In this document: positions 3,845 through 56,852 of the stretch, in pieces | Position numbering within the stretch: the stretch's first letter is position 1 | Layout: every line of letters begins with the position of its first letter | Virus record (IMG/VR): IMGVR_UViG_3300032327_000093 | Span: 5,215 to 69,214 of that record | Source: a virus | Taxonomy: Duplodnaviria > Heunggongvirae > Uroviricota > Caudoviricetes | DNA: 64,000 nt | Strand: one strand, 5' to 3' | Notes under the pieces: model-generated | The model's database searches: none | What the model was told of the DNA's origin: nothing | What the model saw: the letters and a program-made list of their open reading frames with translations, nothing else | Program-made: the position numbers and the translations under genes

Positions 3845-4285
3845 ATGTTAACAGAAGATTTAAAAGTGTTATTGGCAAGTGTTAACTCACTATCTATCAA
3901 AGCACAAAACTTTCATTGGAATGTAGAGGGAGATAACTTTCCGCAATATCACGATTATCTTGCTAATTTCTATGAAGAAGTATACAGCGCAGTAGATAAA
4001 GTTGCTGAATATATTCGTACATTAGATAGTTATACTCCGGGTAGCTTAACACGCTATGCAGAGTTAACAATCATACAAGATCAACTTAAGATTCCTCGCG
4101 CTGAATTGATGTTTGCTGAATTATATGAAGATAATGCCAAAATGATTGAGCTACTCAATCATTGTTTTGTTTCAGCAACACAAGAAAACAAACAAGGTAT
4201 CGCTAACTTTATCGCTGAAAGGTTAGATGCACACGAGAAACATCAGTGGCAGCTTAGAAGCATTTTGAAAAAATCTAGGGCATAA
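3845..4285 (+). CDS. Dps/ferritin-like protein (DNA-protection-during-starvation family)
   Basis: FHWNVEGDNFPQYHDYLANFYEEVYSAVDKVAEYIRTL matches the Dps ferroxidase-site pattern (HW.V.G..F...H......Y.E.....D..AE); start overlaps the upstream stop (TAATTATG). Confidence 0.55.
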   Translation: MLTEDLKVLLASVNSLSIKAQNFHWNVEGDNFPQYHDYLANFYEEVYSAVDKVAEYIRTLDSYTPGSLTRYAELTIIQDQLKIPRAELMFAELYEDNAKMIELLNHCFVSATQENKQGIANFIAERLDAHEKHQWQLRSILKKSRA

Positions 4286-4286
4286 C

Positions 4287-4727
4287 ATGAAAAAAATAAT
4301 ATTATTATTGACATTGACAATACTATCTAGTGTTACATTAGCAGAAAAGCAAAAAGAAGGTGTAACATACGATGCTGTGATAACTAGAGTTATCGATGGT
4401 GATACTGTAGCCTTTCAAGCACCATTCTTACCTGACCCATTAAAGAAAGAATTGAGTATTCGTGTGTATGGTGTTGATACACCAGAAAAAGGGTTTAGAG
4501 CAAAATGTCCTAGCGAAGATCAAAGAGGTCAAGCAGCAACTGCTTTCACTAAGCATGCCATTGAAGTCGCAAACAAACGACAAGTCGTTCTCATGGATTG
4601 GGACAAGTATGGTGGTCGTGTGTTAGGTGATGTACTATTAAATGGACAAAGCCTTAGACAAATGCTAATTAGTCAAGGCTTTGCCCGAGAATACTACGGT
4701 GAAGCTAAAACCAGCTGGTGTAACTAA
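4287..4727 (+). CDS. secreted thermonuclease (staphylococcal-nuclease/SNase-like) with Sec signal peptide
   Basis: N-terminal MKKIILLLTLTILSSVTLA-EK signal; SNase motifs GDTVAF...VYGVDTPEKG and DKYGGRVLGDVLL. Confidence 0.7.
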   Translation: MKKIILLLTLTILSSVTLAEKQKEGVTYDAVITRVIDGDTVAFQAPFLPDPLKKELSIRVYGVDTPEKGFRAKCPSEDQRGQAATAFTKHAIEVANKRQVVLMDWDKYGGRVLGDVLLNGQSLRQMLISQGFAREYYGEAKTSWCN

Positions 4728-4773
4728 AATTTATTGTTGATAAAATACCACCTATTGTTTAACAAGTTTAAAA

Positions 4774-5976
4774 ATGACTGAAACATTTTGTATATTACCA
4801 TGGATGTCCATGGCAACTAATCCTAAGGGCGAACTAAGAGTATGTTGCAATAGCACTGATAGTACTCCTGGAGCTATTAGTAATCTCATTACTAGACACG
4901 ACAATACTCCTTATCATATATTAGACGATGATATTGATAATTTTTGGAATAGTAAAATCTTAAAAAATTTAAGAAAAGATTTCCTTAATAATGTGAAACC
5001 AAAAATATGTCGCCAATGTTTTAGCTTAGAATCTTTTGGAATAACATCCCCTAGACAATTTTGTAATCAAAAATGGATGTTTGATTACGAACCTAGTATC
5101 ACCCCTCCTGTTATTATTAAATACATAGATATACGATTGGGAAATTTATGCAATTTAAAATGCAGAATGTGTAATCCATATTCAAGTAACCAATGGATCG
5201 AAGAATGGGGATTGGTGAAAGAACCATTGGATGATAAAACCAAAACACAATTATTTAAAATGGATTGGCCTAATAATGACAAGGTGTCTGAAAATTTATT
5301 GAAGTTTGCTAATACAATAGAAGAAATATACTTAACTGGAGGTGAACCAACTCTAGCTACAAGTCAATATATATTGTTTGATAAATTAATTGAATTGAAT
5401 GTAGCTAAAAATATTACTCTGAAGTACAATACCAATTGCACAAATTTACCAAAAAAAATGATTGACTATTGGAAACACTTTAAAAAAATTTCGCTGAATG
5501 CTAGTGTAGATGCATATGGAGACCTCAATAGGTATATAAGATACCCAACTGGATGGAGTTTAGTTGAAACTAATTTAATGAAATTTAAAGAATTATCGCA
5601 TGAAAATATAAATTTAGCAATACATATTACGGTTCAAATGTATAATATATTACACCTAGACAAATTATTAGAGTTTTTAAATATGCACCAAATAAACAAT
5701 ATTTATTTAAGTATACTAGATCACCCATCATGCTTAAACATTAAATTATTACCAGTTGAATTGAAAGAATTAGCTAGAGATAGATTACAGCCGTTTATGC
5801 ACATTCACAGAGTTAAAAACATTATAGATTATATGTTATCTGAAGATTTAAGTTTACGACTTAGCGCATTTAAAATGTATACACTGGCACTTGATAAAAG
5901 TAGAAATGAATCGATTTTAGATTTGGTTCCAGAAATGAAAGATATATTTAATACTAAAGATAATAGTTCACACTAA
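4774..5976 (+). CDS. radical SAM enzyme (CxxxCxxC) with extra N-terminal Cys motif; substrate unknown
   Basis: GNLCNLKCRMCNP is a canonical CX3CX2C radical SAM cluster motif; N-terminal CILPW...RVCC cysteine motif; GGEPTL SAM-binding-like segment. Confidence 0.55.
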   Translation: MTETFCILPWMSMATNPKGELRVCCNSTDSTPGAISNLITRHDNTPYHILDDDIDNFWNSKILKNLRKDFLNNVKPKICRQCFSLESFGITSPRQFCNQKWMFDYEPSITPPVIIKYIDIRLGNLCNLKCRMCNPYSSNQWIEEWGLVKEPLDDKTKTQLFKMDWPNNDKVSENLLKFANTIEEIYLTGGEPTLATSQYILFDKLIELNVAKNITLKYNTNCTNLPKKMIDYWKHFKKISLNASVDAYGDLNRYIRYPTGWSLVETNLMKFKELSHENINLAIHITVQMYNILHLDKLLEFLNMHQINNIYLSILDHPSCLNIKLLPVELKELARDRLQPFMHIHRVKNIIDYMLSEDLSLRLSAFKMYTLALDKSRNESILDLVPEMKDIFNTKDNSSH

Positions 5977-6534: not shown

Positions 6535-7197
6535 ATGCTTACTGAACACATTATTATTGAATCCGCTGCCAATGAATTAGCAAAAAGATTGCCGTCATTA
6601 CAAAAACATGACTACACTACTATTGACAAGTTGATGCAGCAAATTGCTAGCAAACATCGTATCACTGGTAAAGCATTACATGACTTGTTTGTTCATAAAT
6701 TCAAACGTTCACCTGATGAATGGGTCAAAGGTAAACTTGACGAACAACAGATGAGTGTAGATCAGGTAGCAGGATTAAGAAAGGTTCGACCAAGACATGT
6801 TCCTAATCAGCATGAATTATCAGAAGATGATGAACCAGACTTCCTAGAAGATAATCCAATAATGCAGAAATTTATCAAATGGGCTAGCAATGAATTAAAC
6901 TTAAAGTCTACACCCAAATTTGAATTCAGTTACAATACCGAAGAAGCACAAGCTGGGCATCATACTGGTAGACATAAAGATAGTGACAATAGCGTTTGGG
7001 TATATGTAGCCAATCGCAATATGGTTGATATCATGCGTACTGTTTACCATGAACTTACCCATGTACGTCAGGGTGAATTGAATATGATTAAACCTGGTGA
7101 CAGTTATCCGGGTAGCCCAATTGAGATGTTAGCTGACATGACAGCGGGCAAAGCAATGAAGATATTCGGCAAAAATCACCCAGAAATCTTTCAATAA
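6535..7197 (+). CDS. hypothetical protein with HExxH motif (VYHELTHVRQGE)
   Basis: ORF; the Zn-metallopeptidase-like HELTH motif resembles the motif in ORF 39580-39999 (AHELVHVKQF). Confidence 0.4.
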   Translation: MLTEHIIIESAANELAKRLPSLQKHDYTTIDKLMQQIASKHRITGKALHDLFVHKFKRSPDEWVKGKLDEQQMSVDQVAGLRKVRPRHVPNQHELSEDDEPDFLEDNPIMQKFIKWASNELNLKSTPKFEFSYNTEEAQAGHHTGRHKDSDNSVWVYVANRNMVDIMRTVYHELTHVRQGELNMIKPGDSYPGSPIEMLADMTAGKAMKIFGKNHPEIFQ

Positions 7198-7200
7198 AAT

Positions 7201-7223
7201 AGTTTCTATGCTATACTGCATAG
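7201..7223 (+). promoter_or_regulatory. extended -10 promoter (TGcTATACT) embedded in an inverted repeat CTATGC-tatact-GCATAG; essentially leaderless start of the 7224 gene
   Basis: ctatgcTATACTgcatag lies immediately before ATG 7224. The same tatgcTATAAT architecture is found at 17217-17237 and 41263-41280. Confidence 0.35.
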
Positions 7224-7832
7224 ATGCTAAAACTGCTCTTTCCATTACCAAAAGAAATCGTTATCGCATTTAGTGGCGGTGTTGATAGTGTTGCTATCAC
7301 AGATTTCCTTTCACAAAAACATAAGGTAACTTGTGCTTTCTTCCATCATGGAACAGAGAATAGTGAACGAGCATTAGAATTTGTTGCTAAATTCTGCACC
7401 GAACGTAATCTTCCACTTATGATTGGATTGATTAAGAATCAGAAGCCAAAAGAACTTAGCACAGAAGAATATTGGCGAAATGAACGCTATGACTTCTTAG
7501 ATAGTTTTGGTGATTCATTGGGTCCAGTAATCACTGGGCATCATTTGGATGACTGTGTAGAAACATATCTTTGGTCATCACTTCACGGACAACCAAAAGT
7601 TATTCCATCAAAAAGAAACAATGTTGTACGCCCATTTCTAACTACACACAAAAGTGAATTTACAAATTGGTGCGAACGAAAAGATATCAATTGGTGTCAC
7701 GACAATAGCAATGATGACACAAAATATATGCGTAACTATGTAAGAACACATCTCATGCCACACGCATTACATATTAACCCAGGATTGCATACTGTGGTTA
7801 AAAAGATTGTAGAAAGTCAGCAAAATGTTTGA
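7224..7832 (+). CDS. PP-loop ATPase, TilS (tRNA(Ile)-lysidine synthetase) N-domain-like; alternatively a QueC-like amidotransferase-type ATP pyrophosphatase
   Basis: SGGVDS PP-loop (IAFSGGVDSVAI) plus GHHLDDCVETYLWSSLHG, which matches the TilS HHxDDQxET signature; only 202 aa (N-domain only). Confidence 0.5.
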   Translation: MLKLLFPLPKEIVIAFSGGVDSVAITDFLSQKHKVTCAFFHHGTENSERALEFVAKFCTERNLPLMIGLIKNQKPKELSTEEYWRNERYDFLDSFGDSLGPVITGHHLDDCVETYLWSSLHGQPKVIPSKRNNVVRPFLTTHKSEFTNWCERKDINWCHDNSNDDTKYMRNYVRTHLMPHALHINPGLHTVVKKIVESQQNV

Positions 7833-14585: not shown

Positions 14586-15758
14586 ATGAGAAAATTATGG
14601 TATTGTGGATTGGAGCCTTATAAAGCCCGATACACCTTGCAATTACAAGAGTGGAATACTACTGTGTTTGAACGTAGAGGCATCAACTATGTTGTAGTGC
14701 CTGGTGAAACACTTAGCAATGACCAAGCGATTGTTACAGGTCAAGTATTAGATGCACATGGTCGCACATACTACGGTATGAGTCAACTTATGAATCTAAT
14801 TCGTATGATGAAACAAGGAGAACTAAACAATGAAGATGTTATCTACTTTGAGGACATGTTTCAACCCGGTATCGAGAGCCTGCCTTATATTATGGATCAA
14901 ATTGATCCTACTCATCGTCCCCGTATTTTTGTGCGGTGTCTTGCTCAGTCCATTGATCCTGATGATTTCGTTCATGTGTGGGGAATGGCAAAGTGGATGG
15001 CGCAATATGAAAAACTCGTGGACTCATTTGTTAGCGGTGTTTTGGCCACGAATGAGGAAATGGTAGCACACATGAAGATTGCAGGGTGGACTGCTCCAAT
15101 CTATAATATCAGTGGGTTAGCATTTGGCAAATCAGAAGTGCAGAGCCGTGTAGCAAGTATCAAGCCATTCAATGAACGCAAAATGCGTGTAGTGTTTTCT
15201 GCACGATGGGATCAGGAGAAACAACCTGACTTCTACATGGACCTAATTGAGGCATGGCATAAGCAAAATGGACCAGAACTTGAGTTCTGTGTATGTAGTG
15301 GTGGCAAACTAAAATCAAATAGTGATAGCTATATGCAACGCACTTATAATTTGGTTGATAGAGGACTACTAACAATCTATGAGGATTTAGAAAAGAATGA
15401 ATACTATGACATTGTTAATGATAGTCGGGTTGTATTTAACTGTGCGCTACAAGATTGGGTTTCAAACACAGTCAGTGAGGCTGATGCTCTCGGATGCAAT
15501 GTGCTATACCCTGCTTATCGTAGCTTCCCTGAAACTTTTGCCAACGACCATACTCGTCTTTATGTACCTTGGTCTATTGATGATGCTATGGACAAACTGG
15601 AAGCGTTATTGGACACACCACATCCAGCCATGGGCGCAATCAGCGACTACAACAACGGAACAATCGACCGAATCATCGACATCTTAGAAGGTGGTGGAAA
15701 AGATATGCTACGAATGAATGTAGACTATCGTAAACACACTAGAGAAAGTAAATATTAA
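14586..15758 (+). CDS. glycosyltransferase-like protein (paralogous to 18986-20356; possibly a T4 alpha-glucosyltransferase-like GT-B DNA glycosyltransferase)
   Basis: VFSARWDQEKQP here and FIGRWEERKNP in ORF 18986 share an RW(D/E)(Q/E)(E/R)K motif; N-terminus MRKLWYCGLEPY...LQLQEW recalls the T4 AGT N-terminus from memory; 390 aa. Confidence 0.4.
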   Translation: MRKLWYCGLEPYKARYTLQLQEWNTTVFERRGINYVVVPGETLSNDQAIVTGQVLDAHGRTYYGMSQLMNLIRMMKQGELNNEDVIYFEDMFQPGIESLPYIMDQIDPTHRPRIFVRCLAQSIDPDDFVHVWGMAKWMAQYEKLVDSFVSGVLATNEEMVAHMKIAGWTAPIYNISGLAFGKSEVQSRVASIKPFNERKMRVVFSARWDQEKQPDFYMDLIEAWHKQNGPELEFCVCSGGKLKSNSDSYMQRTYNLVDRGLLTIYEDLEKNEYYDIVNDSRVVFNCALQDWVSNTVSEADALGCNVLYPAYRSFPETFANDHTRLYVPWSIDDAMDKLEALLDTPHPAMGAISDYNNGTIDRIIDILEGGGKDMLRMNVDYRKHTRESKY

Positions 15759-15770
15759 AAAGGAAACAAA

Positions 15771-15959
15771 ATGAACGCACATAATGATATTAAAACACAA
15801 TTGGCAGCATATGAAGCCGAACATGAAAAGTTTGAAAAAGGTAATGCAGCCGCTGGAACACGTGCCCGTAAAGCATTGGGCGAACTAGCTAAAGCAGTTA
15901 AGGCACGCCGTAATGAAATCACCGCTGAAAAAGCAGCAAGAAAAGAAGCTAAGGCTTAA
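15771..15959 (+). CDS. small Ala/Lys-rich basic protein (histone-H1-like / nucleoid-associated-like)
   Basis: AAGTRARKALGELAKAVKARRNEITAEKAARKEAKA; RBS aaaggaaacaaaATG. Confidence 0.35.
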   Translation: MNAHNDIKTQLAAYEAEHEKFEKGNAAAGTRARKALGELAKAVKARRNEITAEKAARKEAKA

Positions 15960-15977
15960 TCTGTGATAAATAAATAT

Positions 15978-16001
15978 GTAAGCTACACAACGGTAGCTTA
16001 C
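15978..16001 (+). terminator. stem-loop (gtaagctac-acaacg-gtagcttac), terminator-like
   Basis: 9-bp perfect stem followed by an A/T-rich tract; between the 15771 gene and folE. Confidence 0.4.
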
Positions 16002-16038
16002 ATTTCAAAACAAAAACCATCACAAAGGAAGGTTATCT

Positions 16039-16716
16039 ATGAGTTATAATAAAACAAAAACAGATCCAGAACTGGGTCAAAAAGTACACGAACATTTGGT
16101 TAAGATGGGAGTTGAGACTCCTACAAAGCCAACTATCTTTGATCGTAAAGATAAAATTGAAGTCATTGAAGCGCATTTTTCACAAATCATGCGTACTCTT
16201 GGGCTTGATTTAGAAGATGATAGTTTGTGTGATACGCCAAAGCGTGTAGCAAAGATGTATGTCAACGAAATCTTTTGGGGTCTTGATTATGAGGCATTCC
16301 CTAAATGTACAGCAGTCGATAACAAGATGAAGTACAATGAAATGGTGTGCGAACGCAATATCAATGTACAAAGCAATTGCGAACATCACTTTGTAGTCAT
16401 CGATGGTCTCGCTACTGTCGCATATGTTCCCAATCAAAAGGTTCTAGGATTGAGTAAAATCAATCGTATCGTAGAATACTTTAGCAAGCGTCCACAGATA
16501 CAAGAACGATTGACTGAACAAATCTTTCACACACTACAGTATATTCTAGACACCGAAGATGTAGCGGTCATGATTGACGCACAACATTATTGTGTCAAGA
16601 GTCGTGGGGTAGAAGATACTGGCAGTAGTACTGTCACAAGCAAGCTAGGCGGTGGCTTCAAAAGTGACCCAGCAGCAAGAGCAGAATTCTATCAATTGGC
16701 TCGGGGCGGGAAATGA
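16039..16716 (+). CDS. folE: GTP cyclohydrolase I
   Basis: CEHHFVVIDG active-site signature; 225 aa. Confidence 0.85.
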   Translation: MSYNKTKTDPELGQKVHEHLVKMGVETPTKPTIFDRKDKIEVIEAHFSQIMRTLGLDLEDDSLCDTPKRVAKMYVNEIFWGLDYEAFPKCTAVDNKMKYNEMVCERNINVQSNCEHHFVVIDGLATVAYVPNQKVLGLSKINRIVEYFSKRPQIQERLTEQIFHTLQYILDTEDVAVMIDAQHYCVKSRGVEDTGSSTVTSKLGGGFKSDPAARAEFYQLARGGK

Positions 16717-17174
16717 TATTTAATAGAATCAAAGAACTAAAACAACAAGGCCTAAAGATAGGTATCGTATTCTCGCAATTTGATATATTACATGCAGGAC
16801 ATATCGCAATGCTTAGTGAAGCTAAGAATCATTGCGATTACCTAATTGCTGGATTACAAAACAATGCACAATGGGACAGACCCGAAAAGAATTCACCCAT
16901 TCAAAGTATCGTTGAACGCCAGATAAGTTTAAGTGCTGTACGTTTCGTAGACGAAATCGTAGTATATAACACAGAAAAAGATTTGGAAGACATACTGTTG
17001 ACATTGCCAGTAGATGTGCGTATACTAGGGGTTGAGTACATGGAGAAAGACTTTACTGGTCGTGCAATCTGTGAGAAGCGTAGGATTGAATTGGTATTCA
17101 ATAGTCGTGACCATAGTTTTAGTAGTAGTAGTTTGCGTAAACGTGTAGTACAAGCTGAATCAAAGGATAAATAG
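16713..17174 (+). CDS. sugar-phosphate nucleotidyltransferase, HldE domain II / cytidylyltransferase-like (HxGH)
   Basis: GIVFSQFDILHAGHIAMLSEAKNHCDYLIAGL matches the FDILHAGH...GD.LIV pattern of ADP-heptose synthase (HldE C-domain) and TagD-type cytidylyltransferases. Confidence 0.6.
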   Translation: MIFNRIKELKQQGLKIGIVFSQFDILHAGHIAMLSEAKNHCDYLIAGLQNNAQWDRPEKNSPIQSIVERQISLSAVRFVDEIVVYNTEKDLEDILLTLPVDVRILGVEYMEKDFTGRAICEKRRIELVFNSRDHSFSSSSLRKRVVQAESKDK

Positions 17175-17200
17175 AGATAGCGGTCTCGGCGTCATCCCGC

Positions 17201-17229
17201 TTTACAAATTCTGCTGCCTATGCTATAAT
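17201..17229 (+). promoter_or_regulatory. promoter TTTACA-17 nt-tgcTATAAT (extended -10) with inverted repeat CCTATG...CATAGG around the -10
   Basis: tttacaaattctgctgcctatgctataat, followed by aggagaaaatcATG (queD). Confidence 0.45.
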
Positions 17230-17245
17230 AACATAGGAGAAAATC

Positions 17246-17728
17246 ATGGCAAAGAAATATTTCAGTACAAAAACGTACAAACAGATAGGTCCAGTAGCTT
17301 ATCGTCAATGGCGTGCAGATAGTCATTGTAATCTAATTCACGGTTACGCAATGTCGTTTCATTTTGAATTTGAAGCAGATACATTGGATGCACGTAATTG
17401 GGTTACAGACTTTGGTGGATTAAAACCACTCAAAGGCTTACTAGAAGATTGGTTCGATCATACATTACTAGTCGCACAAGATGACCCAATGCGTGAACAT
17501 TTACTTGAATTGGGTAGATTGAAACTAGCTAAGATTACAGAAGTAGAAAAGACAGGATGCGAAGGTATTGCTGACTTTTTATATGAATATGTGAACACTA
17601 TCTTTCTGCCAAACTGTGGTAGCGAAGAAGCTAAACGTGTCTGGTGCTGTAAAGTAGAGGTTAGAGAGACAGATAGTAACATGGCAGGTCGTCAAGGTCA
17701 TAGAGAAGATAACGAATTTCAGGATTAA
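17246..17728 (+). CDS. queD: 6-carboxy-5,6,7,8-tetrahydropterin synthase (QueD/PTPS family)
   Basis: CNLIHGY...DFGGLK aligns with the QueD C..LHGH...DF.ELK pattern. Confidence 0.7.
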   Translation: MAKKYFSTKTYKQIGPVAYRQWRADSHCNLIHGYAMSFHFEFEADTLDARNWVTDFGGLKPLKGLLEDWFDHTLLVAQDDPMREHLLELGRLKLAKITEVEKTGCEGIADFLYEYVNTIFLPNCGSEEAKRVWCCKVEVRETDSNMAGRQGHREDNEFQD

Positions 17729-17729
17729 C

Positions 17730-18572
17730 ATGGCAAAATTAAAAATAGCAGAACTATTTTACAGCATTCAAGGTGAGGGTAGATACACGGGTGTCCCTTC
17801 CGTGTTCCTAAGAACATTCGGCTGCAACTTCAAATGTGCAGGATTTGGTATGCCTAAGGGTGAATTAAGTCAAGAAGCAAATAATATTGATGCGACAAAG
17901 TATACTGATTACAAGATGTTACCTCTTGTGTCTACTGGATGTGATAGTTATGCAAGCTGGGATCCAAGATTCAAAGACTTGAGTCCAATGCTTGAGACTG
18001 ATACTATCGTTGATAGCATCATGGATATGTTACCACATAAGCGTTGGTTAGATGAACATCTTGTTATCACAGGAGGTGAACCACTACTAGGCTGGCAGCG
18101 TAGTTATGTTGATTTACTTTCACATGATAACATGAAAGGCTTACAAGAATTGACTTTTGAGACTAATGGCACACAGGCATTACATCAGGATCTAAGATTC
18201 TTTTTGAATAAATGGTGTGTCAGTCGCAGTATGGGTTCTATCACATTCAGCGTCAGTCCTAAACTCAGCATCAGTGGTGAGAAGTGGGATGATGCAATCT
18301 GTCCAGACATAATCTATGAGTACAGCCAAGTTGGGCATACATATCTAAAATTTGTAGTAGCTACTAACGAGGATATGGAAGAAGCTGAGGAGGCAGTAAA
18401 TGCGTATCGTAAGAGGGGTTTTCGTGGTCATGTTTATCTCATGCCTTGTGGTGGCGTTGAGCGGGTGTACAATCTTAATAATAGGGCAGTGGCAGAAATG
18501 GCAATGCGAAAAGGATGGCGGTATAGTGATAGACTACAAGTGCCGTTATTCAAAAACGAGTGGGGCACTTGA
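17730..18572 (+). CDS. queE: 7-carboxy-7-deazaguanine synthase (radical SAM)
   Basis: ELFYSIQGEGRYTGVPSVFLRTFGCNFKC is a strong QueE N-terminal signature. Confidence 0.8.
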   Translation: MAKLKIAELFYSIQGEGRYTGVPSVFLRTFGCNFKCAGFGMPKGELSQEANNIDATKYTDYKMLPLVSTGCDSYASWDPRFKDLSPMLETDTIVDSIMDMLPHKRWLDEHLVITGGEPLLGWQRSYVDLLSHDNMKGLQELTFETNGTQALHQDLRFFLNKWCVSRSMGSITFSVSPKLSISGEKWDDAICPDIIYEYSQVGHTYLKFVVATNEDMEEAEEAVNAYRKRGFRGHVYLMPCGGVERVYNLNNRAVAEMAMRKGWRYSDRLQVPLFKNEWGT

Positions 18573-18817
18573 TGCCATCAAGTGATTGGACTACGATATC
18601 GGCTAGTGACTATCATTTCAAAAGATGTATTATGGGTAGAAAATTAAAGTTTACCCTTATCCCTAGACGTTGCTATGTCACAAAGCGTATAATATGGTTA
18701 AAGAGTGCATATCGTATTACCGCAGGATATCCAGTAGGGTTTGCAGATTGGTTGTACGAACATCGGTGGTATGATAAAGATGAATATTTAATAGCAAGAT
18801 TAAGGGATTTAATATGA
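18560..18817 (+). CDS. hypothetical small protein
   Basis: ORF. Confidence 0.3.
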   Translation: MGHLMPSSDWTTISASDYHFKRCIMGRKLKFTLIPRRCYVTKRIIWLKSAYRITAGYPVGFADWLYEHRWYDKDEYLIARLRDLI

Positions 18818-19011
18818 GATTTGAAATGCGTTGGCTTGTTACACCAAATTGGGATGAAGGTCCCGAGAAGATATTACAATATCGCTATGAAAGAGAAATA
18901 ACAGATTACAGTTTACAGAACCCAACTACAGGTTCATTTATAACTAGAAAAGAATTGACTGAATGGATCGATGTTCCAACAGTAGATGAGGCGTGGAATG
19001 CGGACATATAA
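18814..19011 (+). CDS. hypothetical small protein
   Basis: ORF. Confidence 0.3.
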   Translation: MRFEMRWLVTPNWDEGPEKILQYRYEREITDYSLQNPTTGSFITRKELTEWIDVPTVDEAWNADI

Positions 19012-20356
19012 CAAACGCATTGGCTTCCTAATTGCGGATCAACATTTTATTCCACATGGTGGAATAGGACAATTTGCTAAAGGCTTTACAGAGTTATGTC
19101 AGCGTATCAACTGGAAAGTTGATATCATATTAGACAAGCAACCTACAAATGATTTTAGCGAATATGTAAAATCATTGGGTGCTAATATTGTATATCCTGA
19201 TGATCCATTAAGATATTCTTCACATACTGCTACATTCGCATTTAGTGATAGCATTAACTTTGAGAAGATGGTTAACTTTAGAGAAAGTTTACTAAAGGCT
19301 TTTCATACTAATATCTATGACATGCTAGTGTGTAACACACAGGAAGCAATGAGTGCTGCATATGCTATGGGCATTGGTAAGTATATTCCAGTAGTATTCT
19401 ATACACATTCATATAGCATGGTATTTCGTGATGAACAAGATTTTAGTGATGTTTGCATAGATGAATATCATAGTTACTTCAATAAACATATGGAACTGGC
19501 ACATGTTTTTGTAGGCACACAGAGTCAAAAAAATGTAAATGAACTTACTAAGTACGGGGCAAAGAATGTTGCATTATTGCGTATGCCATTGAGTGAACGT
19601 GGATTACTTGAGCCTAACAATGGACCTCGTAGTGGTGTATTGTTTATTGGTCGTTGGGAAGAACGCAAGAATCCGTCAGCTTATATTAAAGTAATGAAAG
19701 AGACAGGATTGCCTTGTAAGGTAATGACTAATGGTACTGGTGCAAAGAAGTTTGAGAAAGCATTTAGTGAAGCTGGTATCACAGACTATGAAATCAAAAT
19801 TGCCATTGTAGGACAAGAGAAGGTAGACTTCATTAAGAGTTGTAAAGTATTCTTCATGCCAGCATTAGGCGAGAACTATCCGTTTGCGTTTAGTGAATGC
19901 TTAGGACATATGCCATGTGTTGTATTGGACAATCAGGAATGGTCCGATAACTTTGATGAAAAGTATTTCTATAAAGAGAAACTAGAAAACGCAGGCAATT
20001 TAATCAGCATGTTATATATTGTTGATAATTATTATACTACTGGTGCATTAGATTATATATATGACCTAGATGATGTTACGGCTAAAGGTTGGATAACATT
20101 CTTGGACAATTTCGTTGCAAAGCGTAGCAATACAAATGCAGCAAAGATTAACACATATGAAACTGTATGCTACCGTGACTATATAAAAGAATTGAATCGT
20201 AGTCACTTAGCCCGTGAAGATTTTGAAAGTGTATTGGCTAATCGTCAGAAGTTTATCATTAACACATATACAGATGACAATAGCTATTTGAGTAAAGACC
20301 CGTTATTCAAGCCAGTAGAAGAAGAAACAGGGTTAGACTTATTCGAAGGATTATAA
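18986..20356 (+). CDS. glycosyltransferase (GT-B, group-1/GT4-like), paralog of 14586-15758
   Basis: LFIGRWEERKNPSAYIKVM resembles the GT4 E-x7-E region; 456 aa. Confidence 0.5.
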   Translation: MRRGMRTYNKRIGFLIADQHFIPHGGIGQFAKGFTELCQRINWKVDIILDKQPTNDFSEYVKSLGANIVYPDDPLRYSSHTATFAFSDSINFEKMVNFRESLLKAFHTNIYDMLVCNTQEAMSAAYAMGIGKYIPVVFYTHSYSMVFRDEQDFSDVCIDEYHSYFNKHMELAHVFVGTQSQKNVNELTKYGAKNVALLRMPLSERGLLEPNNGPRSGVLFIGRWEERKNPSAYIKVMKETGLPCKVMTNGTGAKKFEKAFSEAGITDYEIKIAIVGQEKVDFIKSCKVFFMPALGENYPFAFSECLGHMPCVVLDNQEWSDNFDEKYFYKEKLENAGNLISMLYIVDNYYTTGALDYIYDLDDVTAKGWITFLDNFVAKRSNTNAAKINTYETVCYRDYIKELNRSHLAREDFESVLANRQKFIINTYTDDNSYLSKDPLFKPVEEETGLDLFEGL

Positions 20357-21177
20357 TGAAAAAAGTATTAATAACAGGGAACAGTGGTTACATAGGTAGT
20401 CATCTTAGTAAGATGCTATACAAAGATTATGAATTGTATGGACTAGATATTAATCCATCACAGTTCCCTGTAACAGACCATTTTCAAGTTGATATCAATA
20501 AAGTATTCAATATGGATATGGAATTTGATTGTGTGATTCATTTAGCAGCATTGGTCAACGTAGGCGAAAGTGAAAAGAAACCTATTCAATATTACATTAC
20601 TAACCTGAATGGTACAATGAATGTTATCAACAAGATAAAGACAAAGAATTTTATCTTTGCTAGTACAGGTGCAGCAGTAGGTTGTGCTAGTGCGTATGGT
20701 ATCAGTAAACGTGCTGCGGAAGATGTTGTGCGTGAGTATTGCACACAGCATAGACCTACACCATATACTATCTTTAGATTCTACAATGTGATTGGTAGTG
20801 ATGGGTTTGAACCAACTAATCCAGATGGACTAATGTATAACTTAATGCAAGCAAAAGAGAAGGGTGAGTTTACTATCTTTGGTACTGATTATAATACATT
20901 TGATGGAACTTGCATTCGTGACTATGTGCATGTGAATGAGATATGCGATGCATTGCGTACTGCTATCGAAAAGCCAAGCAATCAAGTAGAATCATTAGGC
21001 CACGGTACAGGTCATACAGTTAGACAGATTGTTAACCTATACAAGAAGGTCAACAACATTGACTTTCTAATAAAAGAAGGGCCAAGAAGAAAGGGTGACT
21101 TAACAATATCTGTGTTAGATAATGTGTCACCCTATATGAAAGAGTTATACTCTTTAGAACAACTACTTAAGGTTTAA
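20356..21177 (+). CDS. NAD-dependent epimerase/dehydratase (short-chain dehydrogenase/reductase (SDR) family, short form)
   Basis: N-terminal Rossmann TGNSGYIGSHL; catalytic YGISK (YxxxK). Confidence 0.6.
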   Translation: MKKVLITGNSGYIGSHLSKMLYKDYELYGLDINPSQFPVTDHFQVDINKVFNMDMEFDCVIHLAALVNVGESEKKPIQYYITNLNGTMNVINKIKTKNFIFASTGAAVGCASAYGISKRAAEDVVREYCTQHRPTPYTIFRFYNVIGSDGFEPTNPDGLMYNLMQAKEKGEFTIFGTDYNTFDGTCIRDYVHVNEICDALRTAIEKPSNQVESLGHGTGHTVRQIVNLYKKVNNIDFLIKEGPRRKGDLTISVLDNVSPYMKELYSLEQLLKV

Positions 21178-22748
21178 TGTCTTAATAGTAATGTTGATAT
21201 AACGTTAGGATCGTTTGCACTGATATCACCTTCACCCGGTGCAACGATAACATTATATTTCATACCAGCTGGTATTGATTTGCGTTTAGCCATGTACTCA
21301 GCATAACTCAATATAGAGTTAGAACTTAATCCATACTGCTTAGCCAATCTTTGTTTTAGTTCAGGTAGTTTGTCAGGTTGTACTTGCCATTGTCCTTCTT
21401 CCCCTTTAACTAAGTTTTTCTTTTCATCCTTGACTAATAAGTCTTGGAACAATTCATCAGGAACAATGCGACTATTCTTAGTTGTATCTAAGTTAGCGTC
21501 TTTAGCTTTAACTTGTTTCTCTTGGCTTGTGTGAGCACCTTCACTCCAATTGATGATGAAGTTGTCTGGCTTATCTGCTAATGCTGCACCAGCCATCTTA
21601 GTGTAAGCATAGAATCTTACATCAGGGTGTTTAGCAGCCATCTTTAGTGCCATGTCTAAGTATTCTGGACTAAAGAAGTCACCAGCATCATGCCAACGAA
21701 TTGTTGTTTGCCAACCATTAGGGAATTTCTTATCACCCTTTGCTCCTGCACTTGCTTCTTTAGAAATCTCAGCACTTAACTGATTAAAGAAACCATCTGG
21801 ATCATTCAATAGATATGTAAGTATTCTTCCGTCACTTTGCCATGGACCTTGGAATTGAATCTTGCCGCCTTTCATAGCGAAACAATCTACTTTACAACTA
21901 CCAGCACCTGGGCATGTGTTAACAACGATTAGATTATTTGTTTGTTCGTCTAGTGCTAATCCAACCAATGCTGCAAAACCAACATTAAAGAATTGCTCAA
22001 ACTCACCATTACTATGCTTCATCTTTTCATTTTGCTTTAGTAATGTTTTAGGACGAATCGCTAATGTTTTCTTAACCGCATCTTCATCAAATGTTTGACC
22101 ATCTGGACTCATGTAAGTAACTACACTACTACGATGTATGTAAGGCATTTTATATCTGTCTGATTTTGTTTTACCAGACACATACTTTTCATTACCCTTT
22201 TTATCTACTTTAACATTGCCTTGTTTATCTACATCGGGTGTACCAATGATACGCTTCATGTAGTCTTGGAACTCTTGACCACCCAAATCACGGGTACTTG
22301 CTGGTAGTTTAGTTGCTTCATCTAGTCCAGATAGGCTACGAATTCTACTCAATTGTGATTCGGATAATCCATCTTCAAGTTCTTCTGCTGGCCAACTCAT
22401 ATGGCTGCGACCATGCTCATCACCGGCACGAACAACAAACACGCCACCATTGTCATACCCATCATCTTGACCGATTTCCCAACCTGCTGACATTAGTAAT
22501 TTTTCTACACGAGGATCTTCATCACCGTTCCACCATTGAGCAGCAAGACGTTTTAGTGTTTCGTCACTAAATCCATCATCACCATCATCATTAGGAGCGA
22601 ACTCTTTTAATTCTTCATCAGATTCTTCTTTGTCAGATTTTGCATCACCGGCACTAGCAACGAATTGCTGAGGTGTCATAATCTTTATGCCACTAGGGGC
22701 ACCTGGCATACTTGGCTCTGCGCCCTCAAATAGTTCTTTGAAATTCAT
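21174..22748 (-). CDS. hypothetical 524-aa protein with CTS-like N-terminus (MNFKELFEGA); putative encapsidated/ejected protein
   Basis: First gene (3' end) of a three-gene minus-strand block; acidic N-region; CTS-like decapeptide. Confidence 0.5.
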   Translation of the reverse strand: MNFKELFEGAEPSMPGAPSGIKIMTPQQFVASAGDAKSDKEESDEELKEFAPNDDGDDGFSDETLKRLAAQWWNGDEDPRVEKLLMSAGWEIGQDDGYDNGGVFVVRAGDEHGRSHMSWPAEELEDGLSESQLSRIRSLSGLDEATKLPASTRDLGGQEFQDYMKRIIGTPDVDKQGNVKVDKKGNEKYVSGKTKSDRYKMPYIHRSSVVTYMSPDGQTFDEDAVKKTLAIRPKTLLKQNEKMKHSNGEFEQFFNVGFAALVGLALDEQTNNLIVVNTCPGAGSCKVDCFAMKGGKIQFQGPWQSDGRILTYLLNDPDGFFNQLSAEISKEASAGAKGDKKFPNGWQTTIRWHDAGDFFSPEYLDMALKMAAKHPDVRFYAYTKMAGAALADKPDNFIINWSEGAHTSQEKQVKAKDANLDTTKNSRIVPDELFQDLLVKDEKKNLVKGEEGQWQVQPDKLPELKQRLAKQYGLSSNSILSYAEYMAKRKSIPAGMKYNVIVAPGEGDISANDPNVISTLLLRH

Positions 22749-23488
22749 TTCTTATTGTTCCTAATAAATTGTTCAGCAAGCATTACTAATTCGTGTAGTT
22801 CCTCAATAGATTCGCAATGCCATCTACGTAGACTTTTATTTATATTGCTGTTTGGGTCTCGTGCTGTTTTAGCACCGGTACGATGTTTCTTCATGCCACG
22901 CATTCTTGCACAGAAGCTAGCACGGCGTTTTGCTGCCTTACTACCTTTTTTAAGTTTACTTGGTTTAGTTGTCACTGCTGTTTGAATCTTGCTGCCAGGA
23001 TGACTGCGGCGATAACTCTTAACAGACTTTTTACTCATTCCGCCTACACGTTTGTTGTTGTGCTTTGACCAATTCTCGCCTTCATCCATATCTTGCTTCA
23101 CTCTAGAAACTGGAACGATAAGTGATTCGTATTCGCTGATATCAACAATATATGCCGGGGACTCTATACCTTTGCCTGAATCATATCTAACGATTTTACC
23201 TGAAACCATTTTTCCCTTGTGAGGTACTGTAACTTGTGTTCCAGGAGAAAGAATAGTACTCTCTCCCTCCGCCAAACCTTCTGATTTGTTACCATAGTTA
23301 GCTGCACCTTTTTTGCGACATTGTACTAGCCTACCTGACGCATACGCACTTGGCCATACCTTAGCAGAAGATTTTATCTTGTAATAGCAAGCATCTTTTT
23401 TCTCCATGAGTTCAGATTCTGAAACTATTGGTCCACCGCAATGTGGGCATTTGTTATGCGATTCAGTTATGATTTCTAATATTTTCAT
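22745..23488 (-). CDS. zinc-ribbon (CPHCGG) protein with Lys/Arg-rich tail; N-terminus MKILEIITES is CTS-like
   Basis: C-x2-C...C-x?-C zinc ribbon near the N-terminus; basic C-terminal half (KKGSKAAKRRASFCARMRGMKKHR). Confidence 0.5.
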   Translation of the reverse strand: MKILEIITESHNKCPHCGGPIVSESELMEKKDACYYKIKSSAKVWPSAYASGRLVQCRKKGAANYGNKSEGLAEGESTILSPGTQVTVPHKGKMVSGKIVRYDSGKGIESPAYIVDISEYESLIVPVSRVKQDMDEGENWSKHNNKRVGGMSKKSVKSYRRSHPGSKIQTAVTTKPSKLKKGSKAAKRRASFCARMRGMKKHRTGAKTARDPNSNINKSLRRWHCESIEELHELVMLAEQFIRNNKK

Positions 23489-24909
23489 TTTCCTTTTCCT
23501 TTAGTACTGACATTTATTGCTTTACCTGAACGATTAGCATTAGGATCCTCACGGCGTTTTCTAGCAGCAGCCGATGCTCTTCCTTTTTTACCTAAACTAT
23601 GTGCTTTGCTTTGTGGTAGACATTTGGGTTTTCCTTCTGATTCACTTCCTCTAGCACAGTCTCCGCGGATCTTTCCATCTGGGCCAAATCTCACCCATTT
23701 CTCTTTGAACCATTTGTGTAGATTTTCAAGTACTTGTTCTGTCTCTGTAGCTTCTGTACTTTCTTTCGGGACACAATTAGGAACTTGTTTGCCGCCCTTA
23801 TTTTTCATGCCCACTTGCTTATGTGTACTCCAACATGCTTCATCTAATTGTTTTACTATCCAATCATCAGGAATCATATGGTTTTTCTCAACAAATTCAT
23901 TATGTAATTCATCACCAGTCAAATTATGTTTTTTACAAACTGATTGCATCATTTTGTCAATATTCGTATAATTTAACTTTATATCTCTTTCTTTTGCCTT
24001 TAGCAATAGTTTTTCTAATGTGTGTACTGCCCCCGGTATTTCTTCACCAGAAACTTTGAACGGCTTCATGTTTCCTGACTTCATAAATTCAGGTTTCTTT
24101 TCCTCAGCCACACCTTGTGATTTGCGGATATACTCATTGGCAGCATTTTGTGCATCTTTGCTGTCATCACCAAAATGAAGATTTACAATATTTGAATAAA
24201 TTTTACTTGCTTGTTTCTTATGTTTATCAGCAGTTGTGTAGTCTCCGCGATTTTCCGCTTGCCGTGCTTGACTTTTATGTTTGGAATAAATTTTAATTTT
24301 ATCATCTAAAGAAAGCATCTTGGAGCCTTCCGCCACACCTTGCTCTCCGATGTTTACACTTTGTGAAGAATGAAACGGGCTGTGGATGTTGGTATCATCG
24401 TCAGTTGACGGATCGCGGCGTTTCATTTTAGCAGCATGTGCATCATCACTGTGCATTTTATTAACCAAGGCTCTCATTGGATCAGTTTTCTCTAATTTCT
24501 TCTGCGCTCTTAATTTGTCCATGTGACGATCAAATGCTGCTGAATCAAATGCTTCCGCTACACTCTGCTCACGCTCTGCTTGACGCTGTGCCCAACGCTC
24601 TTTGTTGCGTTGGACTTGTTGAGGACTTGCTTTCTTTTCTTTGCTTAGGTCACGATATAATGCTCGACCCAATGCGCTGGTATGAGGATTCTTTTCAGCC
24701 TCTGCGGCTTTGTTGGCCGCACGGCGCCTTTTCATGTAATCTGCGTTGTCTCGATCAGTGGATCCTGAACCTTGATCCGCAAACACCTCATCAATCTGGT
24801 CACCTTCCGCCACACTTTTTGGCTTCTTGCCAGCTTTCTTCATAGCGATGGCTATCGCTGCTTGCTGTGCAGGACTACCAGCTTCGGATATAAATTCGGT
24901 AAATCTCAT
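23485..24909 (-). CDS. hypothetical 474-aa highly charged protein with CTS-like N-terminus (MRFTEFISEA)
   Basis: ORF; low-complexity K/E/R/D-rich sequence. Confidence 0.5.
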   Translation of the reverse strand: MRFTEFISEAGSPAQQAAIAIAMKKAGKKPKSVAEGDQIDEVFADQGSGSTDRDNADYMKRRRAANKAAEAEKNPHTSALGRALYRDLSKEKKASPQQVQRNKERWAQRQAEREQSVAEAFDSAAFDRHMDKLRAQKKLEKTDPMRALVNKMHSDDAHAAKMKRRDPSTDDDTNIHSPFHSSQSVNIGEQGVAEGSKMLSLDDKIKIYSKHKSQARQAENRGDYTTADKHKKQASKIYSNIVNLHFGDDSKDAQNAANEYIRKSQGVAEEKKPEFMKSGNMKPFKVSGEEIPGAVHTLEKLLLKAKERDIKLNYTNIDKMMQSVCKKHNLTGDELHNEFVEKNHMIPDDWIVKQLDEACWSTHKQVGMKNKGGKQVPNCVPKESTEATETEQVLENLHKWFKEKWVRFGPDGKIRGDCARGSESEGKPKCLPQSKAHSLGKKGRASAAARKRREDPNANRSGKAINVSTKGKGK

Positions 24910-53200: not shown

Positions 53201-53722
53201 GTAGGTGGCAATCAACTAGTCTATGTGTTAAATGCTTCATACAGTTTAACCAGTCTCAAGAACACTCTACAGAGTTTGTTTGGATTGACTAATGGTGTCA
53301 CACTAGCATCAAACACACGCTATCAATATGATTTGGTGTTTAACATGCAATTTAGCAAAACAGGTATATTGACTTATGCATTAGCTTTGGGTAGTGGTGT
53401 AGCTGTAGCACAACACAACTATCAAGCAGAAGCTAGCCAAAACAATACTTTGACTGGATATGCTGCTGGTATTACCATGATGAGTCAAAATGCTACAGGC
53501 GCCACAATTACCACTGGTACAGCTATAGGTGACACACTCAACGGATATGGTCACTATGTGGTGCGTGGAACGATTGATGTAACGACTGGTGGCAATGTCA
53601 ACTTTATGGTAAGTCAAGATCAAAATACTCCTATTACTTGGAGTACTTTAACTGGATCTTATATTAAATTGTTACCTTTAGGTGCTATTGGTGCTAACAC
53701 AGCAGCCGGAACTTGGTCATAA
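50207..53722 (+). CDS. collagen-like (Gly-X-Y) tail-fibre protein, 1171 aa
   Basis: Two long GATGATGxxGxTG collagen tracts, each followed by PxAGSNTQxIFN...ANLTFN and [24 protein letters not shown] modules; RBS. Confidence 0.75.
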
Positions 53723-53723
53723 A

Positions 53724-53999
53724 ATGTTCGACCCATTCAAGCAAGCTAAAATTCAAAACGGTTATTCTAAACTCAAGGACGTAAAACTCCCTGAGAAGGA
53801 TATGACATTAGATGAATTAAAACGATTGAGTGGGTCTGGTCAAATCACAGGCGAATATTCATACACTCCACTACATGAATTAGCACAAAAGAAACAACAA
53901 TATATGCGTGAGAATAACATCAAGCCAGGTGATCAGGCCTGGTTCAAACTGATGTTCGCTAAAACACATCTGACAGGTGAAGATCCGTTTTCTAAGTAA
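53724..53999 (+). CDS. hypothetical small protein between the fibre genes (possible fibre assembly/chaperone)
   Basis: ATG one nt after the fibre stop. Confidence 0.35.
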   Translation: MFDPFKQAKIQNGYSKLKDVKLPEKDMTLDELKRLSGSGQITGEYSYTPLHELAQKKQQYMRENNIKPGDQAWFKLMFAKTHLTGEDPFSK

Positions 54000-54013
54000 T
54001 TCTCATTAAATAT

Positions 54014-54036
54014 AGACCTAAACATACGGTCTTTTC
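54014..54036 (+). terminator. hairpin agacc-taaacatac-ggtct + TTTC (terminator-like)
   Basis: After the stop of 53724-53999. Confidence 0.35.
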
Positions 54037-54076
54037 ATGCCCATTATTGATAAATACAAGAATAAAAGGATAAGTA

Positions 54077-56125: not shown

Positions 56126-56127
56126 TT

Positions 56128-56826
56128 ATGATTGTACAGGGTGTAACATTAAATGGTACAAGAGTAGTTGATGCTAGTATCATCATACCAAATCTTGCTA
56201 TCTGGATAGATGCTAACAACAGTAGTAGTTACGGTGGTAGTGGCACAAGTATCACAGACTTAAGTGGTAATGGTCGAACACAGAATCTTACTAATGCTGG
56301 GCAATTTACTACCTTGAGCAGCATTAAATGCTTTGATTGTTCAAGTTCGGGATTAGGTATTGGAGCCGCCTCTATTGGACCTACATTACCTACATCAGGT
56401 TTTACATATATTTCTTGGGCTAGAATTATTGCCAGTACAGCTACTTTTAGGACATTGTTTAGAACCAGTCCTGATGATCATCCTATACTGATCAATGCCG
56501 GAACCAACGATCTAGGCATGTGGGACAACAGTAGTACTTTTCATTCAGCAGGATATAATGTAAGCAGTCTAGCTAATACTTGGGCTCAATGGGTAGTAAC
56601 AGGTGACAGTTCAGGTCAAACATTTTACATCAATGGTCAGCAGGTGGGAACCACCACATATTCGTCAGCAGGTAACAGTCATAATATTACAGGCAATGTT
56701 GGTCAAGCACCTGGTTCTACACAACCATTTGGATATATTGCTAACATGTTGTTATATACAACTAAACTAACACAAGAACAGATACAGCAAAATTACTACT
56801 ACTATAAGAGTTTGTTTGGTGTGTAA
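56128..56826 (+). CDS. concanavalin/LamG-like lectin-domain protein (fibre-associated)
   Basis: [22 protein letters not shown]...[23 protein letters not shown] resembles a LamG jelly-roll. Confidence 0.4.
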
Positions 56827-56852
56827 TAAATATATATAAAAGGGATAACATA

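Follow-up and report, generated by a model that had tools for sequence, protein, structure and literature searches.

Whether a transfer RNA (tRNA) with a CAU anticodon means methionine or isoleucine is set by lysidine, the modification due to tRNA(Ile)-lysidine synthetase (TilS), an enzyme that to our knowledge is essential in nearly all bacteria. We know of only two TilS architectures in current work. Type I enzymes, such as those of Escherichia coli (MesJ/TilS) and Geobacillus, are proteins of 430–500 amino acids with a pair of C-terminal domains (CTD1 and CTD2), while the type II enzyme of Aquifex (317 amino acids) keeps CTD1 on a long helical linker. In type II TilS, reading of the anticodon stem has been ascribed to CTD1 (PMC11947777, PMC12514573). 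The chemistry of TilS switches the tRNA from methionine and AUG to isoleucine and AUA, according to work cited in PMC12069591. We describe here a much shorter member of this enzyme family, encoded by a tailed phage (Caudoviricetes) of the IMG/VR collection. The DNA analyzed, hereafter the window, is a stretch of 64,000 nucleotides from record IMGVR_UViG_3300032327_000093 (positions 5,215 to 69,214). The gene under study, hereafter mini-TilS, codes for the catalytic domain of TilS and for nothing else (Table 1). We consider it probable that its product is a stand-alone tRNA(Ile2)-lysidine synthetase, reduced to its catalytic domain, which supports the decoding of AUA codons.

TilS genes have already been annotated in phages. 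For the Pseudomonas jumbo phages MIJ3 (gp263) and PA5oct (EST35_0433), a putative TilS gene has been reported to be host-like and unusual, with no function assigned and with transcription lasting through the whole of infection (PMC6892783, PMC7318152). TilS is also listed for some pelagimyophages (PMC7029224), and a longer form, of 349 amino acids, is listed in Ralstonia phage RsoM2USA (PMC8504454). The published accounts of phage TilS (PMC6892783, PMC7029224) treat the gene as a curiosity and do not appear to mention missing domains or a pairing with tRNA-Ile2. A limited literature search gave no description of the architecture with the N-terminal domain (NTD) only as a class of its own, of how large and diverse this class is, or of its association with tRNA-Ile2 genes, and these points appear to be undescribed.

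The mini-TilS open reading frame (ORF) is real and intact, and its product is confirmed with confidence as a TilS N-terminal catalytic domain. The protein matches the Pfam family PF01171 (ATP_bind_3) along residues 12–175 (E = 4e-35) and the NCBIfam model TIGR02432 (lysidine_TilS_N) with 127.6 bits, for a cutoff of 93.6, over model positions 2–189 of 189. With the full-length equivalog NF007942, which represents TilS of the E. coli type, the score is only 72.8 bits for a cutoff of 606. When solved structures were searched by sequence, Aquifex aeolicus TilS (1wy5) came first, with E = 1.6e-21 and chain residues 21–227 of 317 aligned, followed by the enzymes of Geobacillus kaustophilus (3a2k, E = 5.4e-16) and E. 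coli (1ni5, E = 3.8e-14). The thiolases TtcA, TtuA and NcsA were considered and rejected, as all of them score below cutoff (NcsA 21.7 vs 500 bits, TtcA 19.9 vs 272, TtuA 16.2 vs 450).

The fold leads to the same family. The AlphaFold2 model of mini-TilS is compact, with a predicted local distance difference test (pLDDT) value of 96.5 and a predicted template modeling (pTM) score of 0.91. When this model was run with Foldseek against the PDB, the five best matches were all TilS structures (TMq 0.80–0.87, E from 4e-15 to 3e-13); TMq was 0.84–0.87 for A. aeolicus TilS (2e21, 2e89 and 1wy5) and 0.80 for E. coli TilS (1ni5). TtuA thiolase structures gave TMq of 0.69–0.78, clearly under those of TilS, and the queuosine-pathway enzyme QueC (2pg3) appeared at rank 50 (TMq 0.43, root mean square deviation 10.6 Å). 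The comparison with TilS and QueC that the earlier note on this DNA had proposed was thus run, and the model fits TilS (TM 0.86) and not QueC.

Conserved residues were then considered along the whole domain. At least 90% of the short family conserve S17, G18, G19, D21, S22, H42, E81, R85 and R88 in the N-terminal part of the protein and H106, D110, E113, G122, R136, P137, D160, N163, R170 and R174 in the rest, and at nearly all of these positions the TilS proteins of Aquifex, Geobacillus and E. coli have the identical residue. In an alignment of 126 members, G19, S22, R88, H106 and R170 are invariant and about 20 more positions nearly so. With type II TilS of Aquifex the phage protein shares the N-terminal catalytic domain at 30% identity and, presumably, its chemistry; the SGGxDS, HxxDD..ET and RP motifs are common to both, as is the TilS-type D-x-S-N...R-N-x-x-R motif which closes the catalytic domain and is kept in the short family. 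The catalytic domain of type I enzymes is likewise homologous. The difference from both types lies in what follows: the phage protein ends near the position of Aquifex residue 227, directly behind the catalytic domain, and lacks the linker-borne CTD1 of type II as well as the CTD1 and CTD2 pair of type I. No match to the TilS substrate-binding or TilS_C families was found in mini-TilS or in the neighboring ORFs of the window. Between its stop codon and dsbA, which follows at 7881, there is a gap of only 48 bp that contains a sigma-70-like promoter. A truncation or frameshift artefact was considered and is ruled out by that promoter-containing gap, by more than 1,000 homologues of equal length and by the compact and complete model. 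From the letters alone, the earlier note had recognized a TilS-like PP-loop catalytic domain devoid of substrate-binding C-domains. Both parts of that claim are borne out, the former by PF01171, TIGR02432, the matches to solved structures and the fold, and the latter by the end of the protein at residue 202, the short gap and the equally short homologues.

The short form is widespread. A search of 5.8 billion proteins returned 1259 homologues at E ≤ 1e-5, of around 196–207 amino acids, the best 120 of which show 66–100% identity and are almost all 192–208 amino acids long. When representatives at 50% identity were searched exhaustively with HMMER, 177 clusters reached E ≤ 1e-30, the best 150 being almost all of 190–230 amino acids, and clustering at 40% identity resolves dozens of mini-TilS lineages. 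Several of the metagenome homologues are already labeled TilS in the JGI annotation. In IMG/VR, 483 viral contigs carry close relatives of mini-TilS, and in nearly all of the best 80 of these the gene order h220-TilS-dsbA-polB is kept. As more than 1,000 metagenome homologues are almost all of equal short length, mini-TilS is not a decaying gene; the earlier note had proposed conservation in related phages as a check for decay, and the gene proves to be conserved and syntenic in those 80 relatives.

The neighborhood of the gene is informative only if independent lineages are compared. The proximity of mini-TilS to folE, queD and queE belongs to one syntenic family and is not countable repeatedly; loci of distant members were therefore gathered. 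The sample comprises 90 loci from diverse phages, dereplicated by sequence and with 35–70% identity, in which neighbors within 10 kb were recorded. Genes for tRNA are present in 58 of the 90 loci and a tRNA(CAU) gene in 32. The latter lies at 200 bp or less from mini-TilS in 16 loci and at 1.5 kb or less in 23, on the same strand every time. CAU is the anticodon of the nearest tRNA in 23 of the 58 tRNA-bearing loci, compared with 10.4% of the tRNAs found there (binomial p ~5e-9, uncorrected for relatedness). When counted by clusters of 55% identity, a CAU tRNA occurs in the locus in 14 of 16 clusters, within 1.5 kb in 11 and within 200 bp in 7. In several loci (L154, L162, L169, L172 and L190) it is the sole tRNA in 20 kb. 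In the reverse check, performed on arbitrary viral loci with an Ile2-like tRNA pattern, 3 mini-TilS genes occurred among the 120 matches listed, 1 of them directly beside the tRNA.

We next asked what type of tRNA accompanies the gene. Silva et al. (2006) reported that tRNAs for Met and fMet usually have C3:G70, while tRNA-Ile(CAT) frequently has C4:G69 and C5:G68 (PMC1635315); initiator tRNAs are marked by a C1xA72 mismatch together with A11:U24 (PMC1635315). By this heuristic classing, 13 of the 16 tRNAs adjacent to mini-TilS lack C3:G70, 13 have C4:G69, 12 have C5:G68 and none is initiator-like, while the CAU tRNAs distant from mini-TilS include clear initiator types. Lack of C3:G70 would, if taken by itself as the sign of Ile2, put elongators of a second class, which have a UUCAUAC loop, together with Ile2-like tRNAs in tRNA-rich arrays; as it is too crude, that rule was used for the TilS-adjacent tRNAs only, beside C4:G69 and C5:G68. 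The CAU tRNA has company in phage tRNA clusters, where the anticodons UAA, UCU, UGU, UGG, UCC and UGA make up with it the familiar set for A- and U-ending codons, and every tRNA-carrying T4-like phage has been reported to have a lysidine-type tRNA-Ile (PMC1524935).

Some of these loci show further peculiarities in their tRNAs. Two tRNA(CAU) genes, L153:10034-10121 (55 bp from mini-TilS) and L183:11521-11608 (963 bp), are 88 nt long and have a long variable arm, unusual for Met or Ile tRNAs. In one lineage, tRNAs with a CUA anticodon (amber-suppressor-like, reported as ‘Pyl’ by ARAGORN) lie about 1.8 kb downstream of mini-TilS. A tRNA with a UUA anticodon (ochre-suppressor-like) occurs in another mini-TilS lineage. 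The tRNAs concerned are located at position 12466 in L115–L118, at 11882 in L153 and at 18525 in L113 and L114. These CUA and UUA anticodons are hints of stop-codon reassignment or suppression in the phages concerned.

The cultured phage PA5oct provides a useful comparison. Its homologue EST35_0433, annotated as TilS, has 203 amino acids and 39% identity to mini-TilS over 99% of the length. PA5oct and MIJ3 share with the window phage the short architecture and combine it, in AT-rich jumbo genomes, with tRNA(CAU); the GC content of PA5oct is 33%, and that of its host 66% (PMC7318152). A cluster of 12 tRNAs is located 7–10 kb upstream of the TilS homologue of PA5oct. Two of the three tRNAs called ‘tRNA-Met’ in this phage share the anticodon arm GCGA-CUCAUAA-UCGC, and their best E. 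coli matches by score are tRNAs annotated by PGAP as tRNA-Ile with CAT anticodon; the third has a C1.A72 mismatch and is initiator-like. Both phages differ from the window phage in belonging to the Arenbergviridae, the latter being T4-like with PolB, DsbA and terminase, and the tRNA cluster of PA5oct, even if 7–10 kb away from the gene, has no counterpart near mini-TilS in the window. Two tRNA arrays flank the homologue in each of the huge phages LR745206 and LR756502, where 32 and 25 tRNAs, respectively, lie within 20 kb.

Taking these data together, we propose the following mode of action. As in the reaction of bacterial TilS, mini-TilS would use ATP to adenylate cytidine 34, at C2, of a tRNA whose anticodon is CAU and would then add lysine, so that a tRNA of the Met type, reading AUG, would become an isoleucine tRNA for AUA. 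The tRNA could be a tRNA-Ile2 encoded by the phage or that of the host. In many other phages mini-TilS and a tRNA-Ile2-like gene make up a two-gene module on one strand. The added capacity to form lysidine would sustain AUA decoding during infection by an AUA-heavy phage. In the window, AUA amounts to 16.8 per 1000 codons and to 28% of the Ile codons; the corresponding frequencies per 1000 codons are 4.9 in E. coli and 0.9 in P. aeruginosa, and TilS of the latter is comparatively slow or weak (PMC12514573). AT-rich phages that import tRNA-Ile2 along with the enzyme that gives it its identity could make their AUA-rich messages independent of a host lysidine activity that may be tuned to a rare codon or be lost after host shut-off. 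For the phage of the window, we infer the enzymatic activity, lysine as the amine and which tRNA serves as substrate. A protein devoid of C-terminal domains would here have to distinguish tRNA-Ile2 from tRNA-Met. When CTD2 is removed from a type I TilS, activity falls strongly and discrimination at the acceptor stem is relaxed, yet tRNA-Met is still poorly used (PMC11947777). In view of this variant, recognition by nothing more than the catalytic domain is conceivable. The earlier note had offered, as its second option, a lysidine-like modification of tRNA or of DNA. The tRNA version is the reading favored by the TilS identity of the protein and by its tRNA(CAU) neighborhood; a role on DNA is without support, as no DNA-modification context was found beside the gene in the lineages examined.

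Several observations weigh against this role. No tRNA gene was detected by ARAGORN and Rfam (at gathering threshold) in about 85 kb comprising the window, 8.6 kb upstream of it (L083) and 10 kb beyond the terminase (L082), and ARAGORN found no tRNA within 10 kb of mini-TilS in any of 44 close-relative loci. In scans of viral contigs by tRNA pattern and by exact tRNA, and in an anchor-protein search, none of the matches listed linked a tRNA(CAU) to a TilS of the window's family on one contig. Among the tRNAs adjacent to mini-TilS in other lineages, the classing of which is heuristic, 3 of 16, all from a single lineage, have C3:G70 together with a U1.U72 mismatch. A tRNA-Ile(UAU), for which lysidine is not needed to read AUA, occurs in some relatives as well as in LR745206 and LR756502. 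What is known of phage TilS comes from gene annotation and transcription (PMC6892783, PMC7318152), and the activity of a bare N-terminal domain is presumed.

The search for a substrate tRNA in the window's own lineage nevertheless provided some indications of where it might be, or might have been. A gene for a DUF7448 protein lies about 63 kb downstream of mini-TilS (L082:18455-18841). In relatives (L334–L409) this gene stands inside arrays of 20–30 tRNAs or by a triad of CAU, Leu(UAA) and Arg(UCU) tRNAs; relatives with this region carry an Ile2-like tRNA(CAU), often as part of that triad. The DUF7448 locus of the window's lineage and its closest relatives (L330–L333) has no tRNAs, which suggests that the array was lost or relocated there. 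Arg(UCU), Ile(UAU) and CAU tRNAs are together on contig 3300027770_001980, which is among the matches listed for a tRNA pattern specific for the family. A contig of 221 kb carries Arg(UCU), Ile(UAU) and Ile2-like CAU tRNAs and stems from the same metagenome as a TilS-bearing contig of 43 kb, which in turn is 99.995% identical, over the comparable 20.5 kb (L012 and L013), to a TilS contig of 263.7 kb. Assignment of the 221-kb and 263.7-kb contigs to one genome was withdrawn after a scan for the exact sequence of the Ile2-like CAU tRNA did not find it on the 263.7-kb contig. No copy of the glycosyltransferase that lies between those tRNAs, which served as anchor protein, was found on the scaffolds of the window's phage in the European Nucleotide Archive (ENA). 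The substrate may be a tRNA in the approximately 130 kb of ENA scaffolds beyond view, or the tRNA-Ile2 of the host. A vibriophage tRNA(CAU) has been seen to carry lysidine at position 34 (k2C34), and it was suggested that host enzymes introduce it (PMC13191261). In the related contigs L454 (105–1831) and L527 (61–4874), tRNA-Arg(UCU), tRNA-Ile(UAU) and an Ile2-like tRNA(CAU) stand side by side; tRNA-Ile(UAU) and Ile2-like tRNA(CAU) are two AUA-reading routes in one phage.

The headline of the earlier note was a different one, namely that the PP-loop enzyme could take the place of QueC in the amidation step; it would adenylate the carboxylate of 7-carboxy-7-deazaguanine (CDG) and amidate it towards 7-amido-7-deazaguanine (ADG) or 7-cyano-7-deazaguanine (preQ0), thereby completing a phage pathway made up of FolE, QueD-like and QueE-like proteins. 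TilS and QueC are both PP-loop ATP pyrophosphatases with an SGGxDS loop, genes for the three other steps do lie 9–11 kb downstream of mini-TilS (16039–18572), and no match to the QueC or TGT/DpdA families was found in the window's ORFs of at least 100 amino acids. The part of the claim that concerned a preQ0-type pathway without canonical QueC stands to this extent; its link to mini-TilS is unsupported, and we regard the substitution as highly improbable. The weak match to the ‘QueC-like’ PHROGs family (E = 4e-7) covers residues 10–64 only and reflects the shared PP-loop, and the QueC models PF06508 (14.3 bits vs 22) and TIGR00364 (13.6 vs 150.3) align residues 12–64 only, so that only about the first 50 residues of QueC and mini-TilS can be aligned. 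The poor fit of the fold to QueC has been given above, and the conserved residues are the TilS set to the end of the domain. The substrate of QueC is a free base and not RNA. The zinc site of QueC is a C-terminal multi-cysteine cluster, and no such cluster is evident in mini-TilS, whose only C-terminal cysteines are C160 and C168. Outside the syntenic family of the window, mini-TilS is almost never near these genes, homologues of FolE, QueD and QueE being found within 10 kb in 1, 1 and 0 of the 90 diverse loci, respectively. The papers on PA5oct and MIJ3 describe the homologue without mention of queuosine or 7-deazaguanine genes. A true QueC could moreover lie in the approximately 130–200 kb of the genome outside view. 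As to the folE to QueE-like block itself, it is flanked by two glycosyltransferases and an NAD-dependent epimerase (window 14586–21177), and it may lead to a base of the CDG type in DNA or to a sugar-linked deazapurine.

Two further explanations accept the TilS identity of the domain and question what it does. The chemistry might be of the TilS type and be directed to another substrate or use another amine (another cytidine of tRNA or rRNA, cytosine in DNA, or an amine other than lysine), the loss of domains reflecting a changed target. Both domains which position tRNA-Ile2 in known TilS are absent from mini-TilS, and in the window's family the gene adjoins replication genes (dsbA and polB) and not tRNAs, none being found nearby in the window or in its close relatives. 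We nonetheless hold a changed target to be quite unlikely, considering that independent lineages prefer a tRNA(CAU) neighbor with Ile2-type features, that the conserved residues of TilS N-terminal domains are retained and that no DpdA or glycosylase-like transferase stands beside the gene in any lineage examined. Alternatively, catalysis might depend on a partner, such as host TilS, the product of the upstream gene h220 or, in a dimer, a tRNA-binding subunit; or the protein might be a regulator or decoy that sequesters tRNA(CAU) or ATP without forming lysidine, for instance against host translation or a tRNA-targeting defense. C-terminal truncation cripples type I TilS (PMC11947777), h220 is adjacent in nearly all close relatives of the window's family and Imam et al. 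speculated on roles in host maintenance (PMC6892783). Catalytic residues that are near-invariant across a very diverse family argue for catalysis, however, and h220 is absent from 70 of the 90 diverse loci and has no equivalent in PA5oct. No match to a TilS C-terminal domain family was found among the neighboring ORFs in the window, which is the locus that was scanned for a separate tRNA-binding subunit. A partner or decoy function is on these grounds unlikely, and a stand-alone lysidine synthetase is the reading that we retain. Regarding h220 itself, a few of the loci of the 80 close relatives, which are short or more divergent, gave no match to it, and it is found in only 20 of the 90 diverse loci, so that its synteny with mini-TilS is confined to the window's phage family.

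The start of the mini-TilS gene also deserves attention. A 7-bp inverted repeat, detected by a stem-loop scan, abuts on the ATG, and its loop contains a sequence like an extended -10 promoter element (Table 1); by sequence reading, no Shine-Dalgarno sequence precedes the ATG. The hexamer is kept in relatives as TATAAT, TATACT, TACAAT or TATCAT at equal distance to the ATG, and several relatives in which the upstream gene is absent (L060, L061 and L124) have a TTGACA-like -35 element 17 nt upstream. The arms of the hairpin vary in a compensatory manner, occurring as CTATGT/ACATAG, CTGTGT/ACACAG and TTGTGCT/AGCACAA. In an alignment of 28 sequences, double changes affect 4 of the 7 pairs, with 24 cells as compared to 12.0 ± 3.0 upon shuffling (0 of 500 shuffles reach 24), and the true hairpin register outscores every shifted one; as the 28 sequences are related to one another, this covariation is supportive and not proof. 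Within the window, the layout of a -10 element in a hairpin is unique to this gene start. The transcript from this promoter is predicted from the sequence to start at or near the ATG and would be leaderless or nearly so, while the hairpin would pair and bury the start codon in RNA that reads through from the upstream gene. The leaderless extended -10 embedded in a palindrome that the earlier note had described is thereby corroborated at the sequence level, by a hairpin with compensatory changes and the lack of a Shine-Dalgarno sequence. A similar arrangement exists in T4 genes e, soc and I-TevI, where the promoter lies inside a hairpin that sequesters the start codon, and the shorter RNA cannot fold and is translated. 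By analogy, read-through RNA of mini-TilS may likewise bury its start codon. The two cases differ in that the mini-TilS promoter is sigma-70-like (TGnTATACT) and not a T4 late promoter (TATAAATA), and in that the mini-TilS transcript is predicted to be leaderless.

Table 1. Features at and around the mini-TilS gene (positions in the window unless residues are indicated).
Feature	Position	Strand	Description
h220, upstream neighbor	6535–7197	+	220 amino acids, HExxH motif, no Pfam/NCBIfam match
7-bp inverted repeat TCTATGC / GCATAGA	7205–7224	+	3′ arm ends on A of ATG; stem-loop scan
Extended -10-like TGcTATACT	7209–7217 (hexamer 7212–7217)	+	In hairpin loop, six bases upstream of ATG
mini-TilS coding sequence	7224–7832	+	202 amino acids, ATG start, TilS N-terminal PP-loop catalytic domain only; ORF listing
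PP-loop SGGVDS	Residues 17–22, nt 7272–7289	+	Sequence reading of mini-TilS
HHLDDCVET motif	Residues 106–114, nt 7539–7565	+	Sequence reading of mini-TilS
folE	16039–16716		Canonical FolE
Nucleotidyltransferase-like gene	16713–17174		RfaE domain II / cytidylyltransferase type
QueD-like gene	17246–17728		Below curated cutoff, QueD best match
QueE-like radical SAM gene	17730–18572		Below curated cutoff, QueE best match

The genome in which mini-TilS resides is that of a T4-like jumbo phage and is AT-rich. The window has a GC content of 38.8% and codes, besides the DsbA-like protein, for a DNA polymerase of family B, a large terminase and collagen-like putative fiber proteins. The best cultured relatives of the polymerase are those of jumbo phages, with 43–46% identity (Atu_ph07, Vibrio 2.275.O, XaC1 and the 121Q group), and related IMG/VR contigs reach 230–300 kb. 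Upstream of the TilS region, a ferritin-like, a staphylococcal-nuclease-like and a twitch-domain radical SAM protein (NF033640, 366 bits) are encoded in a row (window 3845–5976). Just upstream of the large terminase (window 50207–62012), three proteins of 1171, 682 and 1719 amino acids have collagen-like repeats, which in two of them were seen only via precomputed Pfam hits on near-identical ENA homologues; presumably they are fiber or decoration proteins. In ENA assembly ERZ28594406 the window is split over two scaffolds, scaffold_22 (123,870 bp) and scaffold_59 (88,653 bp, with the terminase), and is therefore derived from another, more contiguous assembly. The end of scaffold_22 is located about 24.4 kb into the window, within a block of minus-strand genes (window ~21174–24909).

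With respect to the wider family, the balance of evidence leans somewhat towards mini-TilS as a lysidine synthetase of a third architecture (NTD-only, ‘type III’), which would recognize tRNA-Ile2 without a C-terminal tRNA-binding domain and would be spreading among phages as an AUA-decoding module with its own tRNA(CAU). If so, the catalytic domain alone would separate tRNA-Ile2 from tRNA-Met, perhaps by means of co-evolved features of the anticodon arm or with relaxed specificity, and in lineages without a nearby phage tRNA the enzyme may act on the host tRNA(CAU). For the gene itself, the reading as part of a queuosine pathway is corrected. A diverse natural family of bare catalytic domains, often with the presumptive substrate tRNA adjoining, is a ready minimal system, and these enzyme–tRNA pairs are small enough for in vitro tests and structural study. 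If the proposed role is true, AT-rich jumbo phages bring along a rare-codon tRNA plus the enzyme that gives it its identity, an import that would matter most in GC-rich hosts, in which the host's own TilS is slow and AUA is barely used (PMC12514573).

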